From NCBI GenBank assembly GCA_048937405.1, contig JBHLNF010000002.1, positions 160,001 to 224,000 of the forward strand: 64,000 nucleotides of DNA, given 5' to 3'. The notes beneath the pieces were generated by a model. That model had not been told where the DNA came from, did no database searches, and worked only from the letters and a program-made list of their open reading frames with translations. Origin of the DNA: Promethearchaeota archaeon. Its GTDB lineage: Archaea; Asgardarchaeota; Lokiarchaeia; Sigyniarchaeales; SOKP01. Shown here piece by piece: positions 2,626 through 25,049 of the stretch. Position 1 is the first letter of the stretch, and each line of letters starts with the position of its first letter. A program made the position numbers and the translations under genes.

Positions 2626-4050
2626 TTATTTTATTAGAACTCCTGCTTGATCAAAGTTTAAAAAAGCACTAATTTTCTCTTTAAGTGGATAAATCCCCTC
2701 TTTGAGCAGAGTAATTAAGAAAATAGCTATGAACACAATCGATCCTAATCCTGGAGCAAAACCACTTAAAATGTCAAGAAATGTAGAGGAAGGATCCCAA
2801 GAGAACAATGTGTAAAATAACGAAATCCCCGCTATCAAAATTGGGATAAATGATATTATTGCAGCGGTTCTTTTACTAAGATTTAAATGGATTGGTCCAA
2901 GATCAAGTTTAAAATATTTTGGTTGTACCATAATAGATAAGACTGTATGGCTAATTACTTTTTCTTCAAATTCAATATAGACATTTAAAAATCTTCTCTC
3001 AGTTTCTTTTTTCTTCTTTTTTTCTTTCTTAGATTTCAAGGGCATAATGGAGAAAATCATTACTGGGGGATTAACTGCATCCTTTTTAACTTCGACCTTT
3101 CCAAATATCGGATGTACTTCAAATCCTTCACCTTGAATTTTAAGATCCAGAACAGGAGGTTCTTTCTTAGTTGTTACTATTGTAAAAGTTGTTTCATATA
3201 TTGTTTTTCCTTCTTCATCTACAATTTTTAGCTCTTTATGGGAAAAATATACATAAAACAAATAGCTCCTTTGTTCCATCATAACAGAATAATATTGAAG
3301 TCCCATATTAATTTCATATATAGTTGGTTGAGGTTCTTCGGAAACAACTGTAGTAGGTTCAGGCATTGGTTTTGGTGGAGGTGGTGGTCCTGCAAGAGTC
3401 TCCGAAGGAAGGGGTGGGGCTGGAGCAGCTGGGGGGGTTTCAGGGGGAGCAGCACCTCCCGAAGGTGGAGGCTTACTAGTAAAAAGTGCAGGTGATGGGG
3501 GAGCGCCCTCCTTTTTAATAGCTTTTGGGACTCCTTTTGACCTTCTTGATTCTTCTCTTTCTTTAACATCTCTTTTAAATAATTCTTCTGCTTCATCTAC
3601 TTCCTCTAAGTATTTTGCATCATCTACTTCTGAGGAAAGGATTTCGTATTCTTCATCATATGTTTCTTCATCTTCCATCTCAAAAACTCCATCTATCAGT
3701 TTTTCAGTAGCTTTTAATTTTTTTTTAGACTTTCCCTTCTTTTCTTCAGATTTTTCCTCTTTTTTTACTGACTTCTTTTTCTTTGATACTTTTAAATTTT
3801 TCAATTTTTTTATTTCAGGAATTCTCGTATTGGTAACAAAATCTATAAAATATATATCACTGCGATTCAGTTGAGTTTCTTTGAAAGATGAATAAATATC
3901 ATCTAGCACTTTAGCTATCCTTGTTGATTTTTTATATGTACCAACAAACATGAAATCTAGTATCTCTATAGATAGAATATTAGTTTTATAATCATAGAAT
4001 ATTCTATTGGTCGGAATTTCAAGACTAGAAACACTTTTCAATGATTCCAA
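2626..4050 (-). CDS. Hypothetical membrane-anchored protein with Lys-rich, acidic and proline-rich tracts
   Basis: 474-aa ORF with low-complexity K/E and polyproline segments, a beta-rich domain and two C-terminal hydrophobic helices. Confidence 0.75.
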   Translation of the reverse strand: MESLKSVSSLEIPTNRIFYDYKTNILSIEILDFMFVGTYKKSTRIAKVLDDIYSSFKETQLNRSDIYFIDFVTNTRIPEIKKLKNLKVSKKKKSVKKEEKSEEKKGKSKKKLKATEKLIDGVFEMEDEETYDEEYEILSSEVDDAKYLEEVDEAEELFKRDVKEREESRRSKGVPKAIKKEGAPPSPALFTSKPPPSGGAAPPETPPAAPAPPLPSETLAGPPPPPKPMPEPTTVVSEEPQPTIYEINMGLQYYSVMMEQRSYLFYVYFSHKELKIVDEEGKTIYETTFTIVTTKKEPPVLDLKIQGEGFEVHPIFGKVEVKKDAVNPPVMIFSIMPLKSKKEKKKKKETERRFLNVYIEFEEKVISHTVLSIMVQPKYFKLDLGPIHLNLSKRTAAIISFIPILIAGISLFYTLFSWDPSSTFLDILSGFAPGLGSIVFIAIFLITLLKEGIYPLKEKISAFLNFDQAGVLIK

Positions 4051-9521: not shown

Positions 9522-12500
9522 TTACTTTTTATCATCAGTATGAATTACAATGTTTCCTCCTTGTAGTATGCCCAAGGGATCAAAACCAGCTCTATGATAT
9601 ATCTGTCCGATCTTGTCATAGACTTTTATCTGGAATACATCGTCTCCTTCATCGTTGTACTCATCCCAAACATCCACTCTCATCCTATAATTTCCCTCAC
9701 TCCAGGCAAGTTCTCCCGTTTTAGAGTTATATTTTTGAACAACGCATTTTGCTTCGAAAAAAGAGTGATTCCCTATAATAGCCATTCCCTCCCAAGCGTT
9801 TGACTTGATGATATACTCCCAATCACCTTCTCTATAGACATAAATCGCCTGACCTTTTGGGAGCCCATTCTTTTTATATTTTACATTGAACCCAAAGTTT
9901 CCTTTCCTTCCAGTTTCATCCCAAATCCATCCTCCACCTGTAACAAAATCACCTGTAGGTTCATAAATAGTGAGGGCAACCAAGTCCGAAGAATCTCCCT
10001 GATAGTAATCATTTAAACCAGGACTAAAGACGACTTTTATAAGATAACAGTTTTCTGGTAAATTAGGGACTTCAATTTCAAATACTCCTACTCCGTCAAC
10101 AAACGTAAATTCAACCATAAAGGGTCCATAAGATTCCTTTGGAACAAGTGAATCTGGCATAGGGCAATCGTAAATATAAAATGTAACATAAATTTTGTTG
10201 AGATCACCCCAGTAAAGATCAGCATCATCATAAACGGTCACTCTAAGTGTAATTGTATCTACAGTTGTAGGTATGACAGTAGAACCTGTATAGGTTAAAA
10301 CTACGAATTCTTTCTCTATGGTAAATCCAGCTGAATCAGAATCAGCTAGATACATACCATCCCCTTCAAACACCGCAGTAACAGTATAGAAATCGCCTGC
10401 TGGTTGGAGTAGTATGAGTTCAATGCTAGCAACACCAGAAGAATCTGTAACAACAGACACTGTTTGAGAACCTATGGTAAATATTATTGTTTTACCAGAG
10501 ATTGGGTCTCCTGTGACTACATCGAAGAGTTTAGCTTGAAGCTGGACAGGATCAGAGTAGAACCCACTAGTATCTCCTATATAGGTAAGGTCGCAGGTAT
10601 TTACAATCACATCCAATGATTTCATTCCTTCTGCATTACCAGCTTTATCGATACTATAATATTCAATCGTATGAAATCCTGCATCGGGTATTGTGAATGT
10701 GGTCATATCACCGTAGTGAGTAACCCAAGCACCATCATCTATGCGATATTTTATTGCAGCAACACCAAAACCATCACCATCCTGTGCTGTTATAACCAAT
10801 TCAGTAATAGCAGATATAAGATATGGTTCTTCTGTTCCTTGAAAAGGTGGGAGAATAGTAAGTGTAGATATTGGATCTGTTATATCCTTAACTGTAACCA
10901 TTAAGCTATCGATTCCTACCCCTCCATCATCATCAACTATCTTTAGATACACTGTATAGATACCAGGTACCTGATAAACATGAGTTGGTTTTAATGTATC
11001 TGATTTCACATAACCAGCTCCTTCCCCAAAATTCCAGTAATAGGTGTATTCATCTGCTCCAGGATCGGTGAAACTTCCACTGAAAAAAGTGGTATCTCCC
11101 TCGTTAATTTCCTGATCTGATCCTGCTATGGATGTAGGGGCTACATTGGAAACCGTAATATTTATTGGAGTAAGATAAACTACGTGTAGATCCTCAATAT
11201 TAACTGAACATCCAGGCATGAATGTAACAATATTAGTTCTTGATTGACCAACAATTCTAAACTGCATAGAACCATCGTCCCTATAATAGTCATCTGAACT
11301 ATTCGTCCAAGATACATCCCAAGATTTATCTGCCGCCTTAAGACCGGTTTTTTGCCAAATTAAAATCCAATTTTCTTGATCGTCTTGTACGTATAGCTTC
11401 ACATATCCACCATAATCAAATAAACTATTTGTATAATTTATCCTACATTCAACTCTATATGAATCTGGTGGCATAGTGTTGTCATAATATGGATTTATAA
11501 AACAGAAATTAAGGTTTGCTCTGGTAGTTGATGTATCTAAAATCGCGCATGGGAACCCTGTAATATCGAAATTTCCATTACCCCTATTGTTTCCACCATG
11601 ACTTGACAAAAAAACTTTAAACTCAGGTGTAAATGACTGATAGAAAGCATATTTTCTACCATCATCATCTTCTACTATTATGTTAATAATATAATCATCA
11701 TATGGTGTTCCACTAGGATTATCATCTGAGTATGTATGTGTCTCAGAAATTGAATTGGTACCTGCGGGATAGTTAAATTCCTCTAGTGGTGAACCATCGC
11801 CCCAGTCTATAGTTACTAGAAACGTATCTAATGTACTAGGATCTTTAATTGTCGCAGATAAAGTACACCTGCTTCCCTCATCAATAGACGTAGCACTCAA
11901 TCCATCAAGTATAGGATCGACATTAACTATAATAATACTAGCCAATGCTGTATCTGTGTGTAAAGAATTGGAAACCTCTACCATAACGGTTCCCGAATAA
12001 TCATCAGACCAGGTTCCCGAATAAGCATCAGACCAGATTGGATTATCGCTCCAAGGAGTATCCCATTTTCCATCATTTTCAAAATCCCATCTATATAGAA
12101 GTGGATCTCCATTAAGGTCAAAAGAATCGCTTGCATCTAAAGTTACATGTGATCCTTCATCACCATAATACGGACCACCAGCACTCGGTATAGGCTTATA
12201 ATTTACTTTTACGCGCAAATCCTTAATTTTAACATAACAGGTAGGCATGTCACCTGGAGTACCAGTATGAGATTCACCAACAATTTTAAATTGCATAGAA
12301 CCATCATATCTATAAAACTCATCTGTATTAAAAAACAGTTCTACAGGCCATGTTTTTTCTTCAGAGGGCAACCCCCCAGAACAGTAGATATTTCCCCTAC
12401 CCCATACCCCTTCCCATTCCCCATCATCCCGTTGTATGTATAGTGTTACATTTCCAAGATTGTCATTTCTCGATACCAACGGAGGAAATAATATATTATT

Positions 12501-14555
12501 ACTATAAGTAACAGTACAACTAATTGTATAGGAGTCTGGTGCGCCATAATCTCCAAAATAAGGATTATTAAAACCGAAATTAAGCCTAGCCTGGGTACCT
12601 GAGTAATATGCACCTCCCTGGTGGTATTTCCCTCTTATCGAGAGATTTCCATTACCCATGTTATCAAGCTGAGAATCTAGAACTTCAACTGTGTAGAAAA
12701 CAGGATACTGATTTATATAATCTAAAAATTCCTCGGTTTTACAATACTGACCAACAGTATACACTCCATCTTTAGGAAAGAGGTCATCAGAAGCATAATT
12801 TAAATGAACGCGTAGATTATATATCTCAACTCTTACAGTTGGTTTTCTTGAAACAAGGAGATCTGGAGAATCTATGGACTCACCGACAATTTTAAAATTC
12901 ATAGAACCATCGTCCCTATAGTACTCATCTGAAGTTTCTGTCCATGTTACATTAAACCATGTTTCATCTGTACTACTAAGACCGGTCTTTTCCCATATTG
13001 AAATCCAGTTTTCTTGATCGTCCTGTACATATAGCTTTACATATCCATTCTTATCATTTCCATTATCATAAGTAATAGTGCATTTAACTATATATGAATC
13101 TGGTGGGCCAGAATTTTCATAATAGGGATTAATAAAGCCGAAATTAAGCCTTGCTCTAGTAGTGGAGGTATCACCAAGGGCTGCTAGATACCCTTCAATA
13201 TGGAAATGTCCATTACCCATGTTATCAAGGTTCGTAGATACTATATTTTCAACTTTATACTCGGATGTATAATACTGACCAACAGTATACACTTCTTCTA
13301 TAGGAAATATGTCTTCTTGGGAGTAATCTATTTCTACGCGTAAATCTTCAATCGTAACCTCACATTTAGCGCTACCACCATCAATATCAGTAATAGATTG
13401 GCCGACAAGTTTAAAATTCATAGAACCATCGCCCCTTAAATATTCAAATGAATTATTAGTCCATGATCGATCTTGCCATTGCTTAAAGCCGAGACTAAGA
13501 CCATATTTCTCAAATATAGGAATCCACGCTCCATCATCTCGTAATATATATAGAACCACATTTCCATCAATACCCCAATTAAAAGATGTGATAGAAAATT
13601 TAACTGTATATGTGGGGCGACCATCATCGACATGAAGGGGATTATTCACTCCGAAAGTAAGACTTGCTTTGGGATTAATGTTTTTAATGAAAGGGGGTAT
13701 ATACAATCCTTCAATAATAAAATGCCCATTACCCATATTATCATTACCTTGAGATAATGTATTTACAAGATCTTCGGGGTTATATTTCTGCCCAATTGTA
13801 TACAACTCTTCTATAGGAAGTAAGTTATCAATATCATATTTTAGTTCAACACGTAGATTGGTAATCTTAACTCTAACAGAAGGGTATTGTGGAAGACCCG
13901 GGGAATAGGTTATAGACTCACCGACAATTTTAAAATTCATAGAACCATCGTCCCTATAGTACTCATCTGAAAGCATCCGTTCTACATGCCATTTTTCAGC
14001 TACCCCATCAAGATCATATTGTTCAAATATAGGAAACCATTCTCCATCATCTCGTACAATGGATAGAATTACGGATCCATTAATGTCATTCCAATTATTA
14101 TATGACACATCACATTTAACAGTATAAGAAGCTGGTATGCCAGAGTTTTTATAATAGGGATTATTAAAACCAAAATTAAGCCTTGCTCTGGTAGTGCAGG
14201 TATCAAAAGGAGCCGCCATGGGCCCACTAATATGGAAATGTCCATTACCCATATTATCAAGGCTCTGAGATAATATATCGGCTACTTTATTCTCGGATTT
14301 ATAATATTGACCGACAGCATATACCTCTTTATCAATATAGGTTGGATTAGATAGTGCTAAATTATTTTCTATATTTTCAGCTTTATTTTCATCTACGTCT
14401 TTATCAATGTAGGTTGGATTAGATAATGGTAAATTTTTTTCTTTATGTTTATCAGCATCGTATATAGGGCTTGTCCCTACCATTGTACCAATAAATATTA
14501 AAAGAGAAAAAATTATAATTAATCTTTTTTTTACAGAAGAAATCATTGATTTCAC
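9522..14555 (-). CDS. Large secreted protein with five ~175-aa repeat domains, PKD/Ig-like domains and a C-terminal FVTGGGWI domain
   Basis: N-terminal signal-like segment; repeats of VGQY..DNMGNG..RARLNFGF.NPY..RDDG.W..YRDDGSM.FKIVGES; PKD motifs (YRWDFENDG, IDWGDGS, YYWNFGEG, V.DDDGG). Confidence 0.85.
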   Translation of the reverse strand: MKSMISSVKKRLIIIFSLLIFIGTMVGTSPIYDADKHKEKNLPLSNPTYIDKDVDENKAENIENNLALSNPTYIDKEVYAVGQYYKSENKVADILSQSLDNMGNGHFHISGPMAAPFDTCTTRARLNFGFNNPYYKNSGIPASYTVKCDVSYNNWNDINGSVILSIVRDDGEWFPIFEQYDLDGVAEKWHVERMLSDEYYRDDGSMNFKIVGESITYSPGLPQYPSVRVKITNLRVELKYDIDNLLPIEELYTIGQKYNPEDLVNTLSQGNDNMGNGHFIIEGLYIPPFIKNINPKASLTFGVNNPLHVDDGRPTYTVKFSITSFNWGIDGNVVLYILRDDGAWIPIFEKYGLSLGFKQWQDRSWTNNSFEYLRGDGSMNFKLVGQSITDIDGGSAKCEVTIEDLRVEIDYSQEDIFPIEEVYTVGQYYTSEYKVENIVSTNLDNMGNGHFHIEGYLAALGDTSTTRARLNFGFINPYYENSGPPDSYIVKCTITYDNGNDKNGYVKLYVQDDQENWISIWEKTGLSSTDETWFNVTWTETSDEYYRDDGSMNFKIVGESIDSPDLLVSRKPTVRVEIYNLRVHLNYASDDLFPKDGVYTVGQYCKTEEFLDYINQYPVFYTVEVLDSQLDNMGNGNLSIRGKYHQGGAYYSGTQARLNFGFNNPYFGDYGAPDSYTISCTVTYSNNILFPPLVSRNDNLGNVTLYIQRDDGEWEGVWGRGNIYCSGGLPSEEKTWPVELFFNTDEFYRYDGSMQFKIVGESHTGTPGDMPTCYVKIKDLRVKVNYKPIPSAGGPYYGDEGSHVTLDASDSFDLNGDPLLYRWDFENDGKWDTPWSDNPIWSDAYSGTWSDDYSGTVMVEVSNSLHTDTALASIIIVNVDPILDGLSATSIDEGSRCTLSATIKDPSTLDTFLVTIDWGDGSPLEEFNYPAGTNSISETHTYSDDNPSGTPYDDYIINIIVEDDDGRKYAFYQSFTPEFKVFLSSHGGNNRGNGNFDITGFPCAILDTSTTRANLNFCFINPYYDNTMPPDSYRVECRINYTNSLFDYGGYVKLYVQDDQENWILIWQKTGLKAADKSWDVSWTNSSDDYYRDDGSMQFRIVGQSRTNIVTFMPGCSVNIEDLHVVYLTPINITVSNVAPTSIAGSDQEINEGDTTFFSGSFTDPGADEYTYYWNFGEGAGYVKSDTLKPTHVYQVPGIYTVYLKIVDDDGGVGIDSLMVTVKDITDPISTLTILPPFQGTEEPYLISAITELVITAQDGDGFGVAAIKYRIDDGAWVTHYGDMTTFTIPDAGFHTIEYYSIDKAGNAEGMKSLDVIVNTCDLTYIGDTSGFYSDPVQLQAKLFDVVTGDPISGKTIIFTIGSQTVSVVTDSSGVASIELILLQPAGDFYTVTAVFEGDGMYLADSDSAGFTIEKEFVVLTYTGSTVIPTTVDTITLRVTVYDDADLYWGDLNKIYVTFYIYDCPMPDSLVPKESYGPFMVEFTFVDGVGVFEIEVPNLPENCYLIKVVFSPGLNDYYQGDSSDLVALTIYEPTGDFVTGGGWIWDETGRKGNFGFNVKYKKNGLPKGQAIYVYREGDWEYIIKSNAWEGMAIIGNHSFFEAKCVVQKYNSKTGELAWSEGNYRMRVDVWDEYNDEGDDVFQIKVYDKIGQIYHRAGFDPLGILQGGNIVIHTDDKK

Positions 14556-15446: not shown

Positions 15447-15974
15447 TTGTCATACACTTCGACATATAAAATAGTAATATTTGGAGATAGTCAAACGGGT
15501 AAAACCACATTAACTCATAGGTTTTTAACGAATTTATTTAAAGAAGACATTACAATGACACTCGGAGTAGATTTTCATCTTAAAACCATTGAATCAGATG
15601 GAGAGATGGTAAAACTTCAAATATGGGATTTTGCAGGGGAAGAACGATTTAGATTTTTATTTCCTTCTTATATAAAAGGTGCCAATGGTGCTGTTTTTAT
15701 GTATGACATTACTAATTATGGATCACTTGCTCATGTAGATGATTGGTTTGAAATCATAGAAAAAGAAATCGACTATGAATTACCTATAATTTTTGTTGGT
15801 GGAAAAACAGATTTAATTCATTTAAAAGAAGTTTCTACAAGAAAGGCAATGGATTTGGCTGGAAGCAAAGGAGCAAATGGATTTATAGAATGTAGTTCAA
15901 AAACTGGTGAAAATATTGCTAAGATTTTTGATTTATTAACAAAATTAATTCTTAGAAATAGAAATTCAATATAG
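15447..15974 (+). CDS. Rab-like small GTPase
   Basis: G1 GDSQTGKT, G2 TLGVDF, G3 WDFAGEERF, G4 GGKTD, G5 ECSSK. Confidence 0.92.
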   Translation: MSYTSTYKIVIFGDSQTGKTTLTHRFLTNLFKEDITMTLGVDFHLKTIESDGEMVKLQIWDFAGEERFRFLFPSYIKGANGAVFMYDITNYGSLAHVDDWFEIIEKEIDYELPIIFVGGKTDLIHLKEVSTRKAMDLAGSKGANGFIECSSKTGENIAKIFDLLTKLILRNRNSI

Positions 15975-16682: not shown

Positions 16683-17189
16683 ATGAATGTGTCAAAAGAT
16701 CTTAAATGGAATGATATTACTTCACCAACAATGACTCCGGAAGAATTCCTGAATATTTATAAGGAGAAAATTGAAAAAGTCTATGAAATGTATGAACCTA
16801 AAGTAGACACTCTTGATAAAATAAAAGATGTTCTTAAGAATAAAAAAGGAAAACTTCATATAATTGCTCTAGGTGCTGATTGGTGTCCAGATTGTTCGAA
16901 AAATATACCTAGAATAATAAAAATAGTGAATTATGCTAAAACTCAAGATATTGATTTGAAGATTTTATATGGTATTATGGTGAATGCTCTTCATAAACCA
17001 GGAGAAACAATCTGGCATAAAAAATGTTCACCTCCAGAAGCAACAGATCCCAAGTTTAATTTGAAAGCTATACCAACTTTTTATTTCTTTAATGAAGCTG
17101 GTGAATACATTGGTGCTATAGTAGAAAATCCGAGGTTAAACTCAACACTTGAAGAGGATATTTTGGAAATTTTGGAGGGAAAATGGTAA
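16683..17189 (+). CDS. Thioredoxin-fold protein
   Basis: ADWCPDC active site and the cis-Pro loop AIPTF. Confidence 0.85.
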   Translation: MNVSKDLKWNDITSPTMTPEEFLNIYKEKIEKVYEMYEPKVDTLDKIKDVLKNKKGKLHIIALGADWCPDCSKNIPRIIKIVNYAKTQDIDLKILYGIMVNALHKPGETIWHKKCSPPEATDPKFNLKAIPTFYFFNEAGEYIGAIVENPRLNSTLEEDILEILEGKW

Positions 17190-17304: not shown

Positions 17305-19353
17305 ATGTCGAATTTAAAAGTTAAAAAAGTAATAATTTTCAAACATGGAGTCTCATATTACATTCTTGAAGGTATTTTAAAAGGATCTGGTAAATTCGAG
17401 CTTGAATTTAAGATTGATGAAATGAATGATATTTTAAAATCACTATTTGTAATGGATACAAGTAAAAAAGGATATATTTCATCAATATCTTATGATGCTG
17501 CATTAGAAACGAGTCAATTACTTAGATCAATTATGTTAAATATCCCTGATAGAGATTCTTTTTCTTCCCTAGTAACACAAATTAAAGGTGCTGATGTAGA
17601 TCTTACTATTGGAGGTGCTAAAAAAATATCAGGAAAGATAATGGGAATTGAATCTGTTGAAAAAATTAGTAAAAGTGAGAAAACTACTGAGAAATATTTA
17701 GTGCTTCTACAAGATAATGATGTGATTTCAGAATATAACTTCTCTGAAATTCGCTCTCTGGACATTAAGAATGAAGAGATAAAAAAGGATTTGAAATTTT
17801 TCCTAGATACTGTAATTGCAGGAAAAAAAAAAGACGCAAAAAAAATCATAATTAATTCTGAATCTGGTGGGGATGATGAAATTGAAAGAAATATCTTTGT
17901 ATCTTATATTCGTGAAAGTCCTATCTGGAAAACATCATATCGGTTAATAATGAGTAAACAACAAGCATTAGAGCAAAAATGTCTCCTTTCTGGTTGGAGT
18001 CTTATAGAAAATACCACAAATCAAGATTGGGAAGATATTGAGTTATCATTGGTTGCGGGAATGCCTGTTTCATTTGTGTATGATTTTTATAGACCGATTT
18101 TTATCCAGAGACCGATAATTCAACCTCCAAAAGTATTAAGTGCCCGTCCTACTGAAATTGAAGAAGGATTAGAAATGGATAAATTTACAGAGTATGCTAT
18201 GGAAAAGGAAGTAGCAATACCCGCTCGAGAAAGAAAAGCTAAAGCAAGAGTAGCTACGACAGGAGCACAAGCTCCTAAGAGAGCTGTATTTAAGAGTGAA
18301 TATAAGCCAACTCTGACGTCTGAAGATGTTTTTATGGATAAACTTACATCACAAACAAAAACTCAAACCAAAGACTTAGGAGAATTATTTGAATATAATA
18401 TTTCAAATCCAGTTACTATTAAAAGAAAACAATCTGCGCTTGTTCCAATTCTTACAGAATCAATTAAGGCAAAAAGAATTTTATTATATAATAAAAATGA
18501 GCATGATAAAAATCCTAATGCTTGTCTAGAAATAACGAATAATACTGATTTAACTCTTGAAAGTGGTCCAGTTACAATTATCTATGACGATAATCTAGCA
18601 GGAGAAGCAATAATTCCTTTCTTAAATAAAGAAGATACGAGGTTATTAAATTTTGCCGTAGAACAAGCAGTGATTATAACACATGAACAAAAATCTGAGA
18701 ATTTAAGTGTTCATAGAGTCACATTTGGTAGTGGTTATTCTTATGAATATTATTTCACGAATATGACTACTGAATATAAAATTAAAAATAAAACTGACGA
18801 AGAAAAGGAACTATACCTAGATCATCCAAAGACTCACGAGTTCAAATTCATAGAAAAACCTGTTGAACCCGAAGAAACGCCTAATTATTGGCGATTCAAA
18901 TTGGCACTAAAACCAAAAGATGCTGTAAGTTTTAAACTGAAAGAACAAAGAGAAAATTACTCCAGTAATTACTTGTGGAATTATAACAAAGATGATCTTC
19001 TAAAACGCGTCGGTTTTTATGTAAAACATAAGTTTATTGATCCAGATTTAGAAATTAAGTTAAAAGAAATCGCAGAATTAATTCAAACTTTAAACGGCTT
19101 AAGATCTAAAGAAGAAAAACTTAGAGAAGAACGAGATTTAATGACTGATGAACAAGTAAGGCTTAGAGAAAATATCGCGGTATTAGGAAAAGATAGTCAA
19201 TCTATTTCGTTAAAGGAAAGATATATACAAAAATTGAATATTCAAGAGAGTAGATTTGAAGAAATAAATAAAGAACTTAAAATTTTAGAAAAGAAAATTA
19301 AAGAACTGAATATAGATATAGAAAATAAAATGAATCTACTTTCAACTCCGTAA
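17305..19353 (+). CDS. DUF4139-domain protein with C-terminal coiled coil
   Basis: V.IFKHGV.Y, MNDILKSL, P.WKTSYRL, NTT.QDW..I.LSLVAG.P and LGELFEY motifs; terminal EQ.RLRENI coiled coil. Confidence 0.8.
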   Translation: MSNLKVKKVIIFKHGVSYYILEGILKGSGKFELEFKIDEMNDILKSLFVMDTSKKGYISSISYDAALETSQLLRSIMLNIPDRDSFSSLVTQIKGADVDLTIGGAKKISGKIMGIESVEKISKSEKTTEKYLVLLQDNDVISEYNFSEIRSLDIKNEEIKKDLKFFLDTVIAGKKKDAKKIIINSESGGDDEIERNIFVSYIRESPIWKTSYRLIMSKQQALEQKCLLSGWSLIENTTNQDWEDIELSLVAGMPVSFVYDFYRPIFIQRPIIQPPKVLSARPTEIEEGLEMDKFTEYAMEKEVAIPARERKAKARVATTGAQAPKRAVFKSEYKPTLTSEDVFMDKLTSQTKTQTKDLGELFEYNISNPVTIKRKQSALVPILTESIKAKRILLYNKNEHDKNPNACLEITNNTDLTLESGPVTIIYDDNLAGEAIIPFLNKEDTRLLNFAVEQAVIITHEQKSENLSVHRVTFGSGYSYEYYFTNMTTEYKIKNKTDEEKELYLDHPKTHEFKFIEKPVEPEETPNYWRFKLALKPKDAVSFKLKEQRENYSSNYLWNYNKDDLLKRVGFYVKHKFIDPDLEIKLKEIAELIQTLNGLRSKEEKLREERDLMTDEQVRLRENIAVLGKDSQSISLKERYIQKLNIQESRFEEINKELKILEKKIKELNIDIENKMNLLSTP

Positions 19354-19417: not shown

Positions 19418-20146
19418 ATGGTTATAAAAACAGTAAATATTGGTTTTAGAAGTCTAATATACCGAAGTGGATGGATGTATAATGCAATAACCCGTAGATT
19501 ATATGATCAAGATAAAAAATTCTCTCTTATTGCAAAAATTATAGGTAAAGGGCCAAAAAGAGTTTTAGATTTACCTTGTGGTACAGGTTATTTATTAAGA
19601 TTTTTGGATCCTTCAATAGAATATGAAGGTGCGGATCTTAACTATAGATTTCTAAGAAGAATTAGAAGTAAAGAATTAAATAAAAGAAATATCAGATTAT
19701 CAAAAATAATTTTATATCAAAAGAATATTTTTGATTTTAAAAATTATTTGGGAAAGAAAAAGGATGTAATTGTGCTTTGCGATATTCTACATCATATATA
19801 CCCTAGACATATTGAATTAATCAATATAGCCAAGAGAATTGCTAATAAAATTGTTATATGCGAGCCTTATGTAATTCAACCAAGAGAAATTACTGCTCGT
19901 GATAAATTGCTCAAAATTGTGATATTGTTTGGTAAATATTTACCAAAACCTTTATTCAAGATAAGTGATTATTTATTTTTAGATAACGACGGAATTAACT
20001 CTTATCAAATGAGATTAAGATGGAATTTTAACAAGAAAAGTCTTAAATTTTTTCTAAAAACTATGGGATTTAATAATATATATGAAATATTAGATGAATA
20101 TATTGCTATTTGGGAAACAAAAGATATTATAGAGGTACAAGCATAA
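19418..20146 (+). CDS. Class I SAM-dependent methyltransferase
   Basis: VLDLPCGTG motif I, GADLN, DVIVLCDILHH. Confidence 0.85.
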   Translation: MVIKTVNIGFRSLIYRSGWMYNAITRRLYDQDKKFSLIAKIIGKGPKRVLDLPCGTGYLLRFLDPSIEYEGADLNYRFLRRIRSKELNKRNIRLSKIILYQKNIFDFKNYLGKKKDVIVLCDILHHIYPRHIELINIAKRIANKIVICEPYVIQPREITARDKLLKIVILFGKYLPKPLFKISDYLFLDNDGINSYQMRLRWNFNKKSLKFFLKTMGFNNIYEILDEYIAIWETKDIIEVQA

Positions 20147-20148
20147 GT

Positions 20149-20826
20149 ATGATAAAGATCACTCTTTCTCTATGGGATACAGGAGGACAAGAACGGTTTG
20201 ACTTTTTTAAAACCGATTTTTTCAAAGGTGTTGCTGTACTTGGTTTAGTCTTCGATTTAAGTCGTCCAGATACTTTTGATGAAATTAATTTGTATTTTAA
20301 AGAAATGCGAAAACAATCGGGTAATATCCCAATTTTTTTAATAGGAAATAAAAATGATCTAAAAAAAGACGTAGGAGAAGCCATCTCTAGAGACAAAATT
20401 ATCCAAACAGTAAATCGGTATTATTTATTTGAGTATATTGAAACTTCCGCTCTGGATAATGAGAATGTAGAACGGTTATTTCACCGACTAGCTATTACAG
20501 CTTTATTGGATTTAAGACCTCGTCTGGGTGAAATTATAGATCCTACTCATTTCAGATTCAAAGTTCTATTAGCGGGAGCTGCTGCTGTTGGGAAATCTTC
20601 CTTAATAAGAACCTTTGCCAAAAAAGAGTTTGAAGAAGATTATAAATTGACAGTTGGATTAGATTTCATGACCCAAACTCTTGAATTCGATGAAGATGAT
20701 ATCCCTGATGAAACACATGAATTAATCAAAAAATCCATTAAAGATTATAAAAAAATTGCAAAGAAATATCGCAAAAGAGAAGAAATATCTGAGATCATAG
20801 AAACTCTAAAGGAAATTGAACAATAA
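20149..20826 (+). CDS. Circularly permuted Rab-like small GTPase (G3-G4-G5-G1-G2)
   Basis: WDTGGQERF (20173), GNKND (20344), ETSA (20440), then KVLLAGAAAVGKSS (G1 at 20575) and YKLTVGLDF (G2 Thr at 20650). ATG at 20149, directly after the methyltransferase stop, is the likelier start. Confidence 0.88.
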   Translation: MIKITLSLWDTGGQERFDFFKTDFFKGVAVLGLVFDLSRPDTFDEINLYFKEMRKQSGNIPIFLIGNKNDLKKDVGEAISRDKIIQTVNRYYLFEYIETSALDNENVERLFHRLAITALLDLRPRLGEIIDPTHFRFKVLLAGAAAVGKSSLIRTFAKKEFEEDYKLTVGLDFMTQTLEFDEDDIPDETHELIKKSIKDYKKIAKKYRKREEISEIIETLKEIEQ

Positions 20827-20868: not shown

Positions 20869-21864
20869 TTATATATAATGAGTTTGACTTGCTATCATGT
20901 CAGCTTTATGTATTAAAGTGCCGAGGTTATTCATTTCTATCGGTAAATATTTACTCCATTTACCATGATGAAATATTATAGCTTGATACATCTCATCATC
21001 AAAATATAAAATTTGACCTTTTCTCTTAATAACTGCTACAGTTTCTTCAACATGATAATCTCTTCCCTCAAAGTTAAATTTTCTTTTAACTTCTTCATGT
21101 ATTATCTCTAATTCTTCACGATTTACCTCAAACTTAGATATAAAGTTCTTTCTCTTGAAGGAATAATATGAAATTTTACCAAAATCATGATAAATAGCAG
21201 TTAAAACTGCCTTTTTAATGTTGACATCGTATTCTTTAGATTTACAGAGATTATAACTATAATTTGTTACTAATAAAATATGATCAAATAATCCTCCTGT
21301 ATACCCTCCATGAATACCTCTTAATGCAGCAGGTAATTTTTTGGCTTCTATCAAAATTTCTTCTAATAAATCTCTTTTAGAATCTTCCAAATCAACAAGA
21401 TCAAAGAAAAAGTCAAATCCCTTATAGTCAAACTCTAATTGGTTTTTAAGATCCCCATTAACGAACTGGTTAATGTCAAGAAGGTCAATTGTATTTTGTT
21501 GACTTTTCAATTTGATTTTAGAACTAATTTGTTTTAATAGATTAGTAGCAAAATCATGGTCTTGATTCTTCAAGACATAAAAAAATTTTACTATATGCTT
21601 ACAAAATTTATTGGTGTGTTTCTTTCGAGCCAAGTAATCAGGACAGTCATGCTCTATAAAATTAGAGGTATTTATCAGAGAAATATTTATATTAAGCTTA
21701 TATGGAATTAGTTTATTTCCTTGTATTTCAGCTTCGATTATACCGTTTTTTTTATCTATTCTAAGAATTCGAACATGTTTATCTGGAATAGATTTTACTC
21801 GATTTAGAGTATTTTTACTTGTTAAATTTTTAATATTTTTTTCAAAATCAATCTGTTCTACCAT
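20869..21864 (-). CDS. SWIM zinc-finger plus HD-domain protein
   Basis: HDCPD...FCKH SWIM-like motif; GGLFDH, AIYHDFGK, AIIFHHG and HKAD HD-hydrolase motifs. Confidence 0.8.
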   Translation of the reverse strand: MVEQIDFEKNIKNLTSKNTLNRVKSIPDKHVRILRIDKKNGIIEAEIQGNKLIPYKLNINISLINTSNFIEHDCPDYLARKKHTNKFCKHIVKFFYVLKNQDHDFATNLLKQISSKIKLKSQQNTIDLLDINQFVNGDLKNQLEFDYKGFDFFFDLVDLEDSKRDLLEEILIEAKKLPAALRGIHGGYTGGLFDHILLVTNYSYNLCKSKEYDVNIKKAVLTAIYHDFGKISYYSFKRKNFISKFEVNREELEIIHEEVKRKFNFEGRDYHVEETVAVIKRKGQILYFDDEMYQAIIFHHGKWSKYLPIEMNNLGTLIHKADMIASQTHYI

Positions 21865-21983: not shown

Positions 21984-22190
21984 ATGAGTATTGATGAATT
22001 ACAAGAAGAGGTAGATAAGCTTTTAGAAGAAATGGATGAACTTCAAGAGGTATGTGATACTCTTCCTCAATGTGAAGAGGATGATGGATGCGCTACTTGT
22101 GAAACGAATAAAAAAATTGAAGAATTAGAACAAAAAATTGAAGATCTTGAAAATAAAATTGAAAAATTGATGGGAGAAGAAGAGGAATAA
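21984..22190 (+). CDS. Small acidic coiled-coil protein with four Cys
   Basis: Heptad repeats flanking C-x5-C-x5-C-x2-C; preceded by an SD-like GGTGTG. Confidence 0.7.
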   Translation: MSIDELQEEVDKLLEEMDELQEVCDTLPQCEEDDGCATCETNKKIEELEQKIEDLENKIEKLMGEEEE

Positions 22191-22280: not shown

Positions 22281-23567
22281 TTACAAATTCTTAAATTGAT
22301 TTCTCAAGTTTCTTGACATAATTAATTGTTGGATTTGTCTCGCACCTCCGATAATTTCCTGAATTCGAGAAATGTTCACATAATCTTGCATCATTGTATT
22401 ATCACACAAACCTGCACCTCCCATAAGATTGGCCGCTTCATAACAAACTTTTCTAGAAAGCAAGGCACAATTGTATTTATATTCACTTCCAAAAGCTACA
22501 AATGCTCTTGAAATATTATCTGGTAATTGTGCATTATACTTTTCCATTTTTTCATCATATTTTTCAGCAAATTTTAAGATACCATGTGTAAGTGATGTCG
22601 TTTTAGCCCACAGATCGGTCAATGGAAAGCCTACCCCTTGATGGAGCAAGACCTCCTTATCAAATTGTTTTCTCAAGTTTGTATAAATTACTGCAATTGA
22701 AAGAGCGCCCCAACATTCACTTATACCTCTTGTTGAGATTGAAATTCTCTCAGGGACCAATCCCTCAAAAAGATGCTCCCTTCCTTTACCAATCCCACCT
22801 AGTATATATTCTTTTGGAACTCGTAAATTAACCAATGTTTCTTTGCCAAGATATAATTTTGGAACATAAGGAATAAATACCCTATCGCAATTCCATCCAT
22901 CCCAAGAGGTGTTTATGAGAAATTGTCCCATAACGTTTCCATTGTTTTGTTCAGCAGTAGCATAAGATACAGCCCATTTTGCTCTAGGTGCGTTTGTATT
23001 ATATACTTTTTCACCGTTTAATAGAAAACTGCCATCTTCCTGTTCTTGACAGGTAGTTAATTGGTGGACCGCATCAGAACCTCTCTCTGGTTCAGTAATT
23101 AATAGACATCCTGTATATTCTCCAGTTACTAACTCTTTTAATGCTTCAAGACGTACTGGAACATTTTCATGATGAAAATAAATAGGGTTTACACAAATAA
23201 CCGTAGCACCGCTTCCCATCGCAAATTGAGGATCAAATAAATCAAGAGCCAATATTCTCATAAAATCTATAGCCATTCCGTGTTCTTTATAATTTAAATC
23301 GATGCAATTATAGTCAAATTGACGAGTTATGTAACCTTGTTTTCCAAAAGCAGGATACCAATCATATATATCTTCATTTGGTCCATGTGTGAGTTTATTC
23401 TGCTCTTCAAATTGTAAACAAAAATCCTCAACTTCTTTAAGAAAGGCGAATTGACTTTCAGTAAGAATTGGAAATAAATTATCATTAAGATAGTTGTATC
23501 TATTTCTTAGATTTAATTTCCCTAATATTTCGTCATTAATAACCTGTGTTTCAAATCGTTTTTGCAT
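22281..23567 (-). CDS. Acyl-CoA dehydrogenase (paralog 1)
   Basis: ITEPERGSD, LNGEK..TN, RKQF, MGGAG and QEIIGGA..IQ motifs. Confidence 0.92.
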   Translation of the reverse strand: MQKRFETQVINDEILGKLNLRNRYNYLNDNLFPILTESQFAFLKEVEDFCLQFEEQNKLTHGPNEDIYDWYPAFGKQGYITRQFDYNCIDLNYKEHGMAIDFMRILALDLFDPQFAMGSGATVICVNPIYFHHENVPVRLEALKELVTGEYTGCLLITEPERGSDAVHQLTTCQEQEDGSFLLNGEKVYNTNAPRAKWAVSYATAEQNNGNVMGQFLINTSWDGWNCDRVFIPYVPKLYLGKETLVNLRVPKEYILGGIGKGREHLFEGLVPERISISTRGISECWGALSIAVIYTNLRKQFDKEVLLHQGVGFPLTDLWAKTTSLTHGILKFAEKYDEKMEKYNAQLPDNISRAFVAFGSEYKYNCALLSRKVCYEAANLMGGAGLCDNTMMQDYVNISRIQEIIGGARQIQQLIMSRNLRNQFKNL

Positions 23568-23750: not shown

Positions 23751-25049
23751 ATGACTGAAAATAAAAAGTTTGAAACCCAAGTAATTAATGACGCAATTTT
23801 AGAAAAGTTAAGTCTTAAATACCGCTATACTTTTTTGAATAGTAATTTAAGTTCGATATTATCAGAAGATCAATTTAAATTTATTCAGAAGGTTCAGCAG
23901 TTTTGCCTACAATTTGAAGAAAAGAATAAAATTACTCACGGGATGAATGAGGATATATATGATTGGATGGCACCATTTGGAGCAGAAGGATATGTCACAA
24001 GGGCTCATGATTTTAAATTCCTTGATGTAGATTTTCCTGAGTGGGGATTAGTAGCAGATCTTCTTCGATATATTGCTGTAGACAATTTTGATCCTCAATT
24101 TGCTATGGCTATTGGAGCTACAGTTTTGGCAATAAATCCTGTATATGAACACCATGAAAATATTCCTATACGGCTTGAGGCTTTAAAAGGTATGGTTACA
24201 GGTAAAGCAGTAGGGGGAATTCTTATTACTGAACCTGAACGAGGTTCTGATGCGGTCCATCAATTAACTACCTGTGAAGAACAGGAAGATGGCAGTTTTC
24301 TATTAAACGGTGAAAAAGTATTCAATACCAATGTCCCCAAATCACAATGGGTAGTTGCTTATGCTACTACTGAACAAAATAATGCAAATACAATGGCTCA
24401 ATTTTTGATAAATACATCATGGGATGGCTGGAGTTGTGAACGTGCAGGAATACCATGGACCCCTAAAGTATTTATAGGAAAAGAGAAATTAGAAAATCTC
24501 AGAGTTCCTAAAGAATGCGTCTTAGGCCCTGTTGGTAAAGGGAGAGAACATCTTTTTGAAGGTCTCGTACCTGAACGCATTGGAATTGCGGTTGGTGCTG
24601 TTGCACAATGTTGGGGTGCTTTAACACACGCCGCAATATATTCTAGTTTGAGAAAACAATTCAATCAAGAGATCTTAAAATTTCAGGGTGTTGGATTTCC
24701 ATTGACCGATCTCTGGGCCAGAACCTCAAATATAACATTTGGATTACTCAAATTCTGTGAAAGTTATGATGAGTTATTTAATAAATATGAAGGAAAAATC
24801 CCACCAAATGTAAGCCGAAATATGGTTCTAAATGCATCTCAATTTAAATATCAGGCTACAAACTTATCAAAAGAAGTTTGTTACGAAGCGGCTAATCTTA
24901 TGGGAGGAGCAGGCTTATCAGATAATACATTAATGCACGATTATGTTGGTATTTCTCGAATTCAGGAGATTGTTGGTGGAAGCAGACAAATTCAACAATA
25001 TATTATGAATGGACACCTTTTATCCTTAAATAAAAGGCTACTTGCATAG
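23751..25049 (+). CDS. Acyl-CoA dehydrogenase (paralog 2)
   Basis: Same ACAD motifs as paralog 1. Confidence 0.92.
   Translation: MTENKKFETQVINDAILEKLSLKYRYTFLNSNLSSILSEDQFKFIQKVQQFCLQFEEKNKITHGMNEDIYDWMAPFGAEGYVTRAHDFKFLDVDFPEWGLVADLLRYIAVDNFDPQFAMAIGATVLAINPVYEHHENIPIRLEALKGMVTGKAVGGILITEPERGSDAVHQLTTCEEQEDGSFLLNGEKVFNTNVPKSQWVVAYATTEQNNANTMAQFLINTSWDGWSCERAGIPWTPKVFIGKEKLENLRVPKECVLGPVGKGREHLFEGLVPERIGIAVGAVAQCWGALTHAAIYSSLRKQFNQEILKFQGVGFPLTDLWARTSNITFGLLKFCESYDELFNKYEGKIPPNVSRNMVLNASQFKYQATNLSKEVCYEAANLMGGAGLSDNTLMHDYVGISRIQEIVGGSRQIQQYIMNGHLLSLNKRLLA

Follow-up and report, generated by a model that had tools for sequence, protein, structure and literature searches.

The cpRAS domain of eukaryotic CPRas proteins is a G domain whose motifs run in the order G3-G4-G5-G1-G2: the break separates strand 2 from strand 3, helix 5 connects to strand 1, and no GTPase motif is lost (Elias & Novotny 2008, Biol Direct 3:21, PMC2430557). 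According to the same paper (PMC2430557), this RAS-family domain has a 'TIE' G2 motif, is eukaryote specific and rare, is always embedded in large VWA or COG2373/macroglobulin-like proteins and has never been studied as an isolated protein; an earlier survey had argued that folding would suffer from a G3-G4-G5-G1-G2 permutation. cpRAS is the only counter-example to that supposed impairment described so far. Natural circular permutants in which helix 5 is likewise joined to strand 1 are the YRG GTPases (YlqF-RbgA, YqeH, and RsgA-YjeQ), TRAFAC ribosome-assembly GTPases with extra RNA-binding domains and a universal distribution. Canonical Rab-like GTPases of Asgard archaea, such as a Thorarchaeota Rab (PDB 7EZB), are reported to lack the prenylated C-terminal extension of eukaryotic Rabs and an evident membrane anchor (Tran et al. 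2024, PMC10933270). Here we describe a gene at positions 20149 to 20826 (+ strand) of a 64,000-nucleotide stretch, referred to below as the window, of contig JBHLNF010000002.1 from the Asgard archaeon Promethearchaeota archaeon (assembly GCA_048937405.1). A sequence-only reading of this DNA had proposed that the gene encodes a stand-alone, circularly permuted Rab-like GTPase. Our analysis leads us to conclude, with a probability of roughly 0.8, that the product is a functional Rab-like GTPase, permuted at the tip of the interswitch hairpin and most likely acting as a membrane-held or membrane-recruited GTP/GDP switch.

The open reading frame (ORF) extends from an ATG at 20149 to a TAA at 20824-20826 and encodes 225 amino acids (aa). 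Pfam Ras (PF00071) matched the protein with 122.7 bits against a cut-off of 21.6 (E 1.4e-35), in two stretches of swapped order, the first of which (residues 3-115) covers profile positions 47-157, from strand 3 through helix 5. The NCBIfam model TIGR00231 (small_GTP) was also matched in two stretches (61.8 bits; cut-off, 42.5). In a phmmer search of all PDB sequences, residues 5-115 aligned with Rab11 58-166 and residues 135-183 with Rab11 6-54; the top 60 matches were all Rab/Ypt proteins, led by Rab11, Ypt31/32, and Rab25. Thus, by sequence homology the permuted protein is a member of the Ras superfamily and a topological variant of it.

The motifs G1 (GxxxxGK[ST]), G2 (Thr), G3 (DxxGQ), G4 (NKxD), and G5 (SA) are all present, each once, and run in the order G3-G4-G5-G1-G2 instead of the canonical linear G1-G2-G3-G4-G5. 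Their invariance was scored in a 26-sequence family alignment, and all of the following features lie on the + strand. The first half of the protein (residues 1-120; 20149..20508), delimited by Pfam, Rab11, and an AlphaFold2 (AF2) model, comprises strand 3, switch II, strands 4 to 6, and helices 2 to 5. It contains G3 (DTGGQ, residues 10-14; 20176..20190) with the catalytic Gln14, the guanine-specificity motif G4 (NKND, residues 67-70; 20347..20358), and G5 (TSA, residues 99-101; 20443..20451). D10, G13, Q14, K68, D70, S100, and A101 are invariant and N67 is nearly so. A linker of ~13 residues (121-133; 20509..20547) leads from helix 5 to strand 1 and has a conserved R-L-G-E core, with G127 invariant in a wide alignment, D121, R125, G127, and E128 invariant among closer members, and a short strand at 129-131 in the AF2 model. 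The second half (residues 134-181; 20548..20691), equivalent to residues ~6-58 of Rab11/Ypt31, comprises strand 1, the P-loop, helix 1, switch I, and strand 2. Here lie the G1 P-loop GAAAVGKS (residues 143-150; 20575..20598; G143, V147, G148, and K149 invariant) and the switch I Thr168 of G2 within a Rab-type TVGLDF (residues 168-173; 20650..20667; T168 and D172 invariant). The peptides on which the sequence-only reading had relied were all found in the translation (strand 3/G3 at 2-17, G4 at 67-70, G5 at 99-101, linker at 120-134, strand 1/P-loop at 137-151, and switch I/strand 2 at 165-173), and its claim of an unusual motif order with every element intact and present once is upheld by the swapped Pfam and phmmer stretches and the invariant motif residues. 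So is its remark that the switches fall at opposite chain ends: switch II is N-terminal, and switch I lies close to where the G domain ends. The RabF1-F5 motifs are reportedly signature motifs of Rab proteins; in a comparison made by eye, RabF1 (IGVDF) resembles VGLDF and RabF5 (LVYDIT) resembles LVFDLS, while RabF2-F4 are weakly kept.

To locate the break, the canonical order was rebuilt by script, with residues 129-183 placed ahead of residues 2-122. The re-permuted sequence aligned with its nearest canonical paralogue in the same genome over 165 residues at 47% identity, colinearly and with no gap at the junction, and gave single colinear matches to ~58 other small-GTPase ORFs of that genome. 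Since the re-permuted alignment is colinear and gapless, the break lies exactly at the turn of the strand 2-strand 3 hairpin, where the sequence-only reading had placed it, and nothing is duplicated or missing. Altogether, the 4.47-Mb genome yielded 102 matching stretches from ~65 canonical small-GTPase genes and a single permuted copy. Among the canonical genes are three adjacent paralogues on contig 13 (C13:221117-223038) and a small GTPase gene at 15447-15974 of the window, and several canonical small GTPases of this genome are fused into longer proteins of 330-570 aa.

We next consider the predicted fold. An AF2 model computed from the 26-sequence family alignment (mean predicted local distance difference test score [pLDDT], 82; predicted template modeling score, 0.78) gave strand 3 (residues 2-11), helix 2, strand 4, helix 3, strand 5, helix 4, strand 6, and helix 5 (107-120), followed by the linker, strand 1 (134-142), helix 1, a low-confidence switch I, strand 2 (171-180), and a helix at 187-224. 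With sequential aligners, just one half can be superposed on canonical GTPases: Foldseek aligned ~94-127 columns of one half only, mostly with a root mean square deviation (rmsd) of 1.1-2.5 Å, and VIA-align matched Rho/Rab chains over model residues 1-120 with Z 12-13 and rmsd 1.5-2.1 Å. Known permuted GTPases superposed on model residues 14-179, across the helix 5-strand 1 junction, with Z 9.4-12.2. These were the pre-60S factor 8pv1_Cd (Z 12.2; 149 aligned residues), YqeH 3h2y (Z 11.0; 137 residues), YlqF 1puj (Z 10.7; 137 residues), and RsgA/YjeQ/YloQ (Z 9.4-10.4; 121-129 residues). Because these permuted GTPases superpose across the junction, the second half packs on the first in the model as in a real G domain, and the two halves are predicted to fold as one alpha/beta G domain, in line with the expectation of the sequence-only reading. 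A two-copy complex prediction (alignment A2) scored 0.00 and carries no weight for or against a homodimer or a domain swap; domain-swapped polymers, which the sequence-only reading had mentioned, have no support. The YlqF/RsgA types differ from the protein of the window in their order, G4-G5-G1-G2-G3, with the break after strand 3, whereas here G3 is N-terminal, before G4. Membership in the YRG/YlqF-RsgA group was considered and rejected, as TIGR03597 (YqeH) gave 22.5 bits against a cut-off of 297.4 and PF03193 (RsgA) gave 14.7 against 30.

The gene is conserved and under selection. Among 5.8 billion proteins, a word-indexed search found 438 relatives. The 120 best of them have 65-88% identity to the window protein and a nearly equal length and derive from metagenome bins of Asgard archaea; in all, more than 120 protein clusters in this identity range start at the same point and have the same order. 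More distant members (39-58% identity), whose chains likewise start at strand 3, were added by an exhaustive HMMER search of 1.8 billion representatives. The homologues are alike in length and order and are not tandem proteins, so that the refuting condition named in the sequence-only reading, tandem homologues of which this would be a fragment, does not apply. The protein is not an isolated case but a member of a conserved gene family. The ratio of nonsynonymous to synonymous substitution rates (dN/dS) was 0.06-0.15 against ten orthologues, with dS at least 0.8 and saturated in some pairs. The permuted GTPase is therefore kept under strong purifying selection, usually as a single copy per genome. 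Public names of the relatives are generic ('ADP-ribosylation factor-like', 'GTP-binding protein', 'Rab-8A', or 'hypothetical'), and NCBIfam holds no specific model for the family.

The boundaries of the gene (20149..20826) follow from its translation, the Pfam Ras match, the orthologues, and dN/dS. Directly upstream, a class I methyltransferase ORF (19418-20146; Methyltransf_12/23) ends 2 nucleotides before the ATG, leaving no room for a lost N-terminal G1, a point on which the sequence-only reading was right. The 3' end of this ORF contains a Shine-Dalgarno-like GAGGT (20132..20136, + strand), read from the sequence 12 nucleotides before the ATG, which may serve in translation of the GTPase. 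An alternative TTG start at 20110 would give a longer GTPase ORF overlapping the methyltransferase gene; it is disfavored because nearly all aligned homologues start 1-4 residues ahead of the conserved strand-3 motif. Four alignment rows with longer N-termini are probably miscalled.

The same genus also encodes tandem Rab-like proteins of ~365-369 aa with two G domains (G203:C98:3960-4481 and G207:C16:42500-43021; also P0143), which match residues 3-180 of the permuted GTPase colinearly. Their existence is what could suggest that such a two-domain GTPase gave rise to the ORF by decay or misassembly, leaving a fragment with no function of its own. Yet they are just 32-42% identical to the permuted protein and have an unrelated linker, orthologues with the same ends occur in dozens of independent assemblies, closed chromosomes included, and neither the low dN/dS nor the upstream gene ending 2 nucleotides before the ATG fits a fragment, so that we regard this explanation as extremely improbable. 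Given the relatives, the genus-wide presence, the single copy, and dN/dS, a misassembly, a decaying fragment, and a chance ORF can be excluded.

To define the distribution, 399 genomes of the phylum were surveyed, with seven candidates scored per genome. In the window's genus, a match to the permuted GTPase (E <= 1e-30) was present in 49 of 53 species genomes, as a single match in 46 and a double match in 3, at least one of the latter being a single gene divided between contigs. Four genomes gave no match; these are 58-88% complete. Matches were found in 63 of the 133 genomes of the window's family, which include a sister genus with the GTPase in 1 of 42 genomes, and in 3 of 14 genomes of a sister family of the same order. 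There was no permuted-family match in the ~30 other families sampled, and the cultured Promethearchaeum syntrophicum and Lokiarchaeum ossiferum gave canonical-type matches only. The permuted family is thus restricted to one Lokiarchaeial order of Asgard archaea. As a small conserved archaeal protein that usually occurs once per genome, it would be a tractable object for testing how the G domain copes with an interswitch hairpin that is broken; it is a lineage-restricted variant, of real but specialist interest.

We further examined the origin of the permutation. A maximum-likelihood tree was built from re-permuted family members, 54 canonical G domains of the same genome, and 45 representative matches. 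The permuted proteins formed one group with a Shimodaira-Hasegawa-like approximate likelihood ratio test (SH-aLRT) value of 78, divided into two subclades at 98 and 99, and this group was nested among canonical Asgard Rab-like GTPases. Independently of the tree, a single origin is favored by two features that both subclades share, the same break point and the conserved R-L-G-E core of the linker. A single event in one Lokiarchaeial order, with a canonical Rab-like paralogue as its source, is thus the probable origin of the permutation. It probably proceeded by a tandem duplication or a fusion, followed by loss of both ends, a tandem two-domain protein being the classical intermediate for permutation by duplication. 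One tandem GTPase, P0143, was considered as a precursor and rejected, since it is no closer than the canonical paralogues and its inter-domain linker is unrelated; on that account, origin by duplication is put forward here as an inference.

The sequence-only reading had left open whether an archaeal example would be an independent origin or a relative of cpRAS. The archaeal family and cpRAS do share the rare G3-G4-G5-G1-G2 order and the break in the strand 2-strand 3 hairpin, which could reflect one origin, by descent from an Asgard ancestor or by gene transfer. However, cpRAS, compared here by its published description, has the RAS-type 'TIE' in G2 and sits in large VWA/COG2373-like proteins, whereas the archaeal family has the Rab-type T-V-G-L-D-F and consists of proteins that are small and free-standing or C-terminally membrane anchored, with a conserved linker of their own. 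The window protein has GTPase-type Pfam matches only, and its long relatives have no Pfam domain besides Ras. Moreover, the best solved matches of the archaeal family are Rab11/Ypt31, its nearest relative is the canonical paralogue encoded by the same genome (47% identity), the family occurs in a single order, and the best 150 matches among the 1.8 billion representatives included no cpRAS-like protein. A search for longer homologues returned 13 multidomain GTPases, none of them cpRAS-like, and also missed the family's own long forms. A common origin is therefore very unlikely. The Rab-type G2, the nesting among canonical GTPases of the same archaea, and the restriction to one order favor an origin of the archaeal permutation separate from that of cpRAS, so that of the two options kinship with cpRAS is the one disfavored. 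In a full-text literature search, cpRAS was the sole published G3-G4-G5-G1-G2 GTPase found, and no description of an archaeal permuted Ras-like GTPase was found. Thus, the archaeal family is probably undescribed, while the topology itself is already known from cpRAS.

In canonical Rabs, the C-terminal end leaves the domain after helix 5, on the side away from switch I and the interswitch. The permutation moves this exit point to the end of strand 2. The window protein ends in a helical tail (residues 187-225; 20707..20823, + strand; AF2 helix 187-224), whose pLDDT falls from 85 to 59 toward the C-terminus (block means). Residues 189-210 are polybasic and amphipathic: 18-residue windows of this stretch have a hydrophobic moment of 0.60-0.68 and carry a net charge of +5 to +9. 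The last 15 residues are acidic, and an i/i+3-4 hydrophobic pattern runs along the tail. Residues 189-210 have the signature of a basic amphipathic helix, which could bind anionic membranes. The 225-aa protein has zero cysteines and thus no C-terminal Cys motif for geranylgeranylation. Canonical Asgard Rabs are alike in superfamily, in G motifs, and in having no C-terminal prenylation Cys; the permuted GTPase differs from them in its swapped halves and in a tail that leaves strand 2 with a basic amphipathic helix or a transmembrane anchor.

Transmembrane anchors are found in the relatives. Of the 134 family proteins whose length allowed a judgment, 23 have a hydrophobic C-terminal helix; the window copy lacks a transmembrane helix. 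The anchored proteins fall into two size classes, one of 268-316 aa with the helix at the very end of the chain and one of 428-755 aa, and in the tail-anchored relatives the transmembrane helix follows the region matching the tail of the window protein. The long forms (428-755 aa; P0126, P0129, P0130, P0135, and P0137) belong to the more distant subclade. Beyond the GTPase they have a low-complexity spacer that is Pro-rich and acidic, a beta-rich conserved region (~120 residues) that matches no Pfam family, and C-terminal membrane helices; AF2 on five sequences of this C-terminal region reached a pLDDT of 55, too poor to identify a fold, and a protein-atlas feature search with it gave weak, unnamed matches only. 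When the family tree was rooted on the more distant subclade, all basal lineages were membrane anchored, the window protein fell in a crown clade without an anchor, and the anchor state changed at least 3-4 times. Read from this tree, the anchor was lost in the window's crown group while the polybasic amphipathic helix was kept. Hence the term stand-alone used by the sequence-only reading holds for the window copy, where it is a derived state, but not for the basal members, which are tail anchored or fused to a long membrane-helix region.

These data suggest how the protein may work. With the P-loop Lys/Ser, the switch I Thr168, Asp10, the catalytic Gln14, NKxD, and SA all intact, it would bind and hydrolyze GTP as a GTP/GDP switch. 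The new C-terminus would serve for attachment, through a spacer and a transmembrane tail anchor or through a long membrane-helix region in basal members, and the window copy may be recruited to the membrane via its interswitch end, near switch I and the effector face. The permuted family would then represent one Asgard lineage that attaches a Rab-like switch to the membrane via a new C-terminus. Alternatively, the tail may not bind membranes at all, and the protein may be a soluble cytosolic switch whose charged helix binds a protein or forms a coiled coil; the missing transmembrane helix of the window copy, the acidic tail end, and the i/i+3-4 hydrophobic pattern would be compatible with this. 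A candidate partner of the tail is a very acidic 68-aa coiled-coil protein (21984-22190, + strand), whose gene adjoins the GTPase gene in most loci, even those without the methyltransferase and HD genes. That gene is, however, also kept at the same place in sister-genus loci without a GTPase gene and is thus independent of the GTPase, and the basal relatives are membrane anchored via the same chain end. We consider a soluble switch unlikely, if well worth bearing in mind, and prefer the membrane-held or membrane-recruited switch.

Several observations weigh against the preferred interpretation or narrow it. GTP binding, hydrolysis, and membrane binding, and with them the function as a whole, are inferred. 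The tail has a pLDDT of ~60 at its low end, and a protein-binding or coiled-coil helix is conceivable in place of a membrane-binding one. The near-absence of the gene from the sister genus indicates that it is dispensable there. Scoring covered seven candidates per genome, so that highly divergent members in other groups could have escaped the survey. The SH-aLRT of only 78 for monophyly comes from a quick tree, no extant precursor was identified among the tandem GTPases that were met, and the neighboring genes give no clue to function.

A bolder proposal concerns the advantage of the permutation. Arf and Sar1 bind membranes via a terminal amphipathic helix beside the interswitch strands, and their nucleotide state is coupled to exposure of that helix. 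By analogy, the permutation could be adaptive: an anchor mechanically coupled to the interswitch could let the nucleotide state steer domain orientation or membrane engagement. The analogy is functional only, as the helix of Arf/Sar1 is N-terminal, before strand 1 of an unpermuted domain, whereas that of the permuted family is C-terminal. We regard such coupling as speculative and rather improbable; if true, it would be an archaeal, prenylation-independent way of placing a Rab-like GTPase on a membrane.

The gene order around the GTPase is kept through the genus. Upstream lie the small GTPase gene at 15447-15974, a thioredoxin-like gene (16683-17189), a gene for a 682-aa protein (17305-19353, + strand), and the methyltransferase gene. 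Downstream are genes for a 331-aa HD-domain protein (20869-21864, - strand) and the 68-aa protein, and a divergent pair of acyl-CoA dehydrogenase-like paralogues of 428 and 432 aa (22281-23567, - strand; 23751-25049, + strand), whose place next to the locus is conserved throughout the family. Orthologous loci vary in whether they contain the methyltransferase and HD genes. The 682-aa gene, at 54-89% identity, was found in 103 of 133 family genomes, including 38 of the 42 genomes of the sister genus, where only one genome has the GTPase. Within the window's genus the search for it gave no match in 13 genomes, and at least 10 of these do have the GTPase. In three sister-genus loci (L093-L095 of g12; ~3350-3800 each), the series of thioredoxin-like, 682-aa, 68-aa, and acyl-CoA dehydrogenase-like genes is intact and the GTPase, methyltransferase, and HD genes are absent, which looks like a clean segment loss in that genus or a gain elsewhere. 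The neighborhood was accordingly rejected as a functional clue, on the co-occurrence of the 682-aa and GTPase genes and on these three loci. Because the methyltransferase and HD genes vary, the 682-aa gene occurs without the GTPase, and L093-L095 lack the segment, the synteny is best explained by descent and not by a functional module.

Some further features of the neighbors were noted. The 331-aa HD protein, present in part of the loci, has a C-terminal HD phosphohydrolase domain and an N-terminal region without a Pfam match; its gene converges on the GTPase gene, with 42 nucleotides between the stop codons. The 68-aa protein has a central C-x5-C-x5-C-x2-C cluster. The 682-aa protein has a weak DUF4139 match (E 0.008), no NCBIfam model, and a Lys/Glu-rich C-terminus that looks like a coiled coil by eye. 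Farther upstream in the window, an ORF at 9522-14555 (- strand) encodes a 1677-aa protein with PKD and bacterial immunoglobulin-like domains, probably a surface protein.

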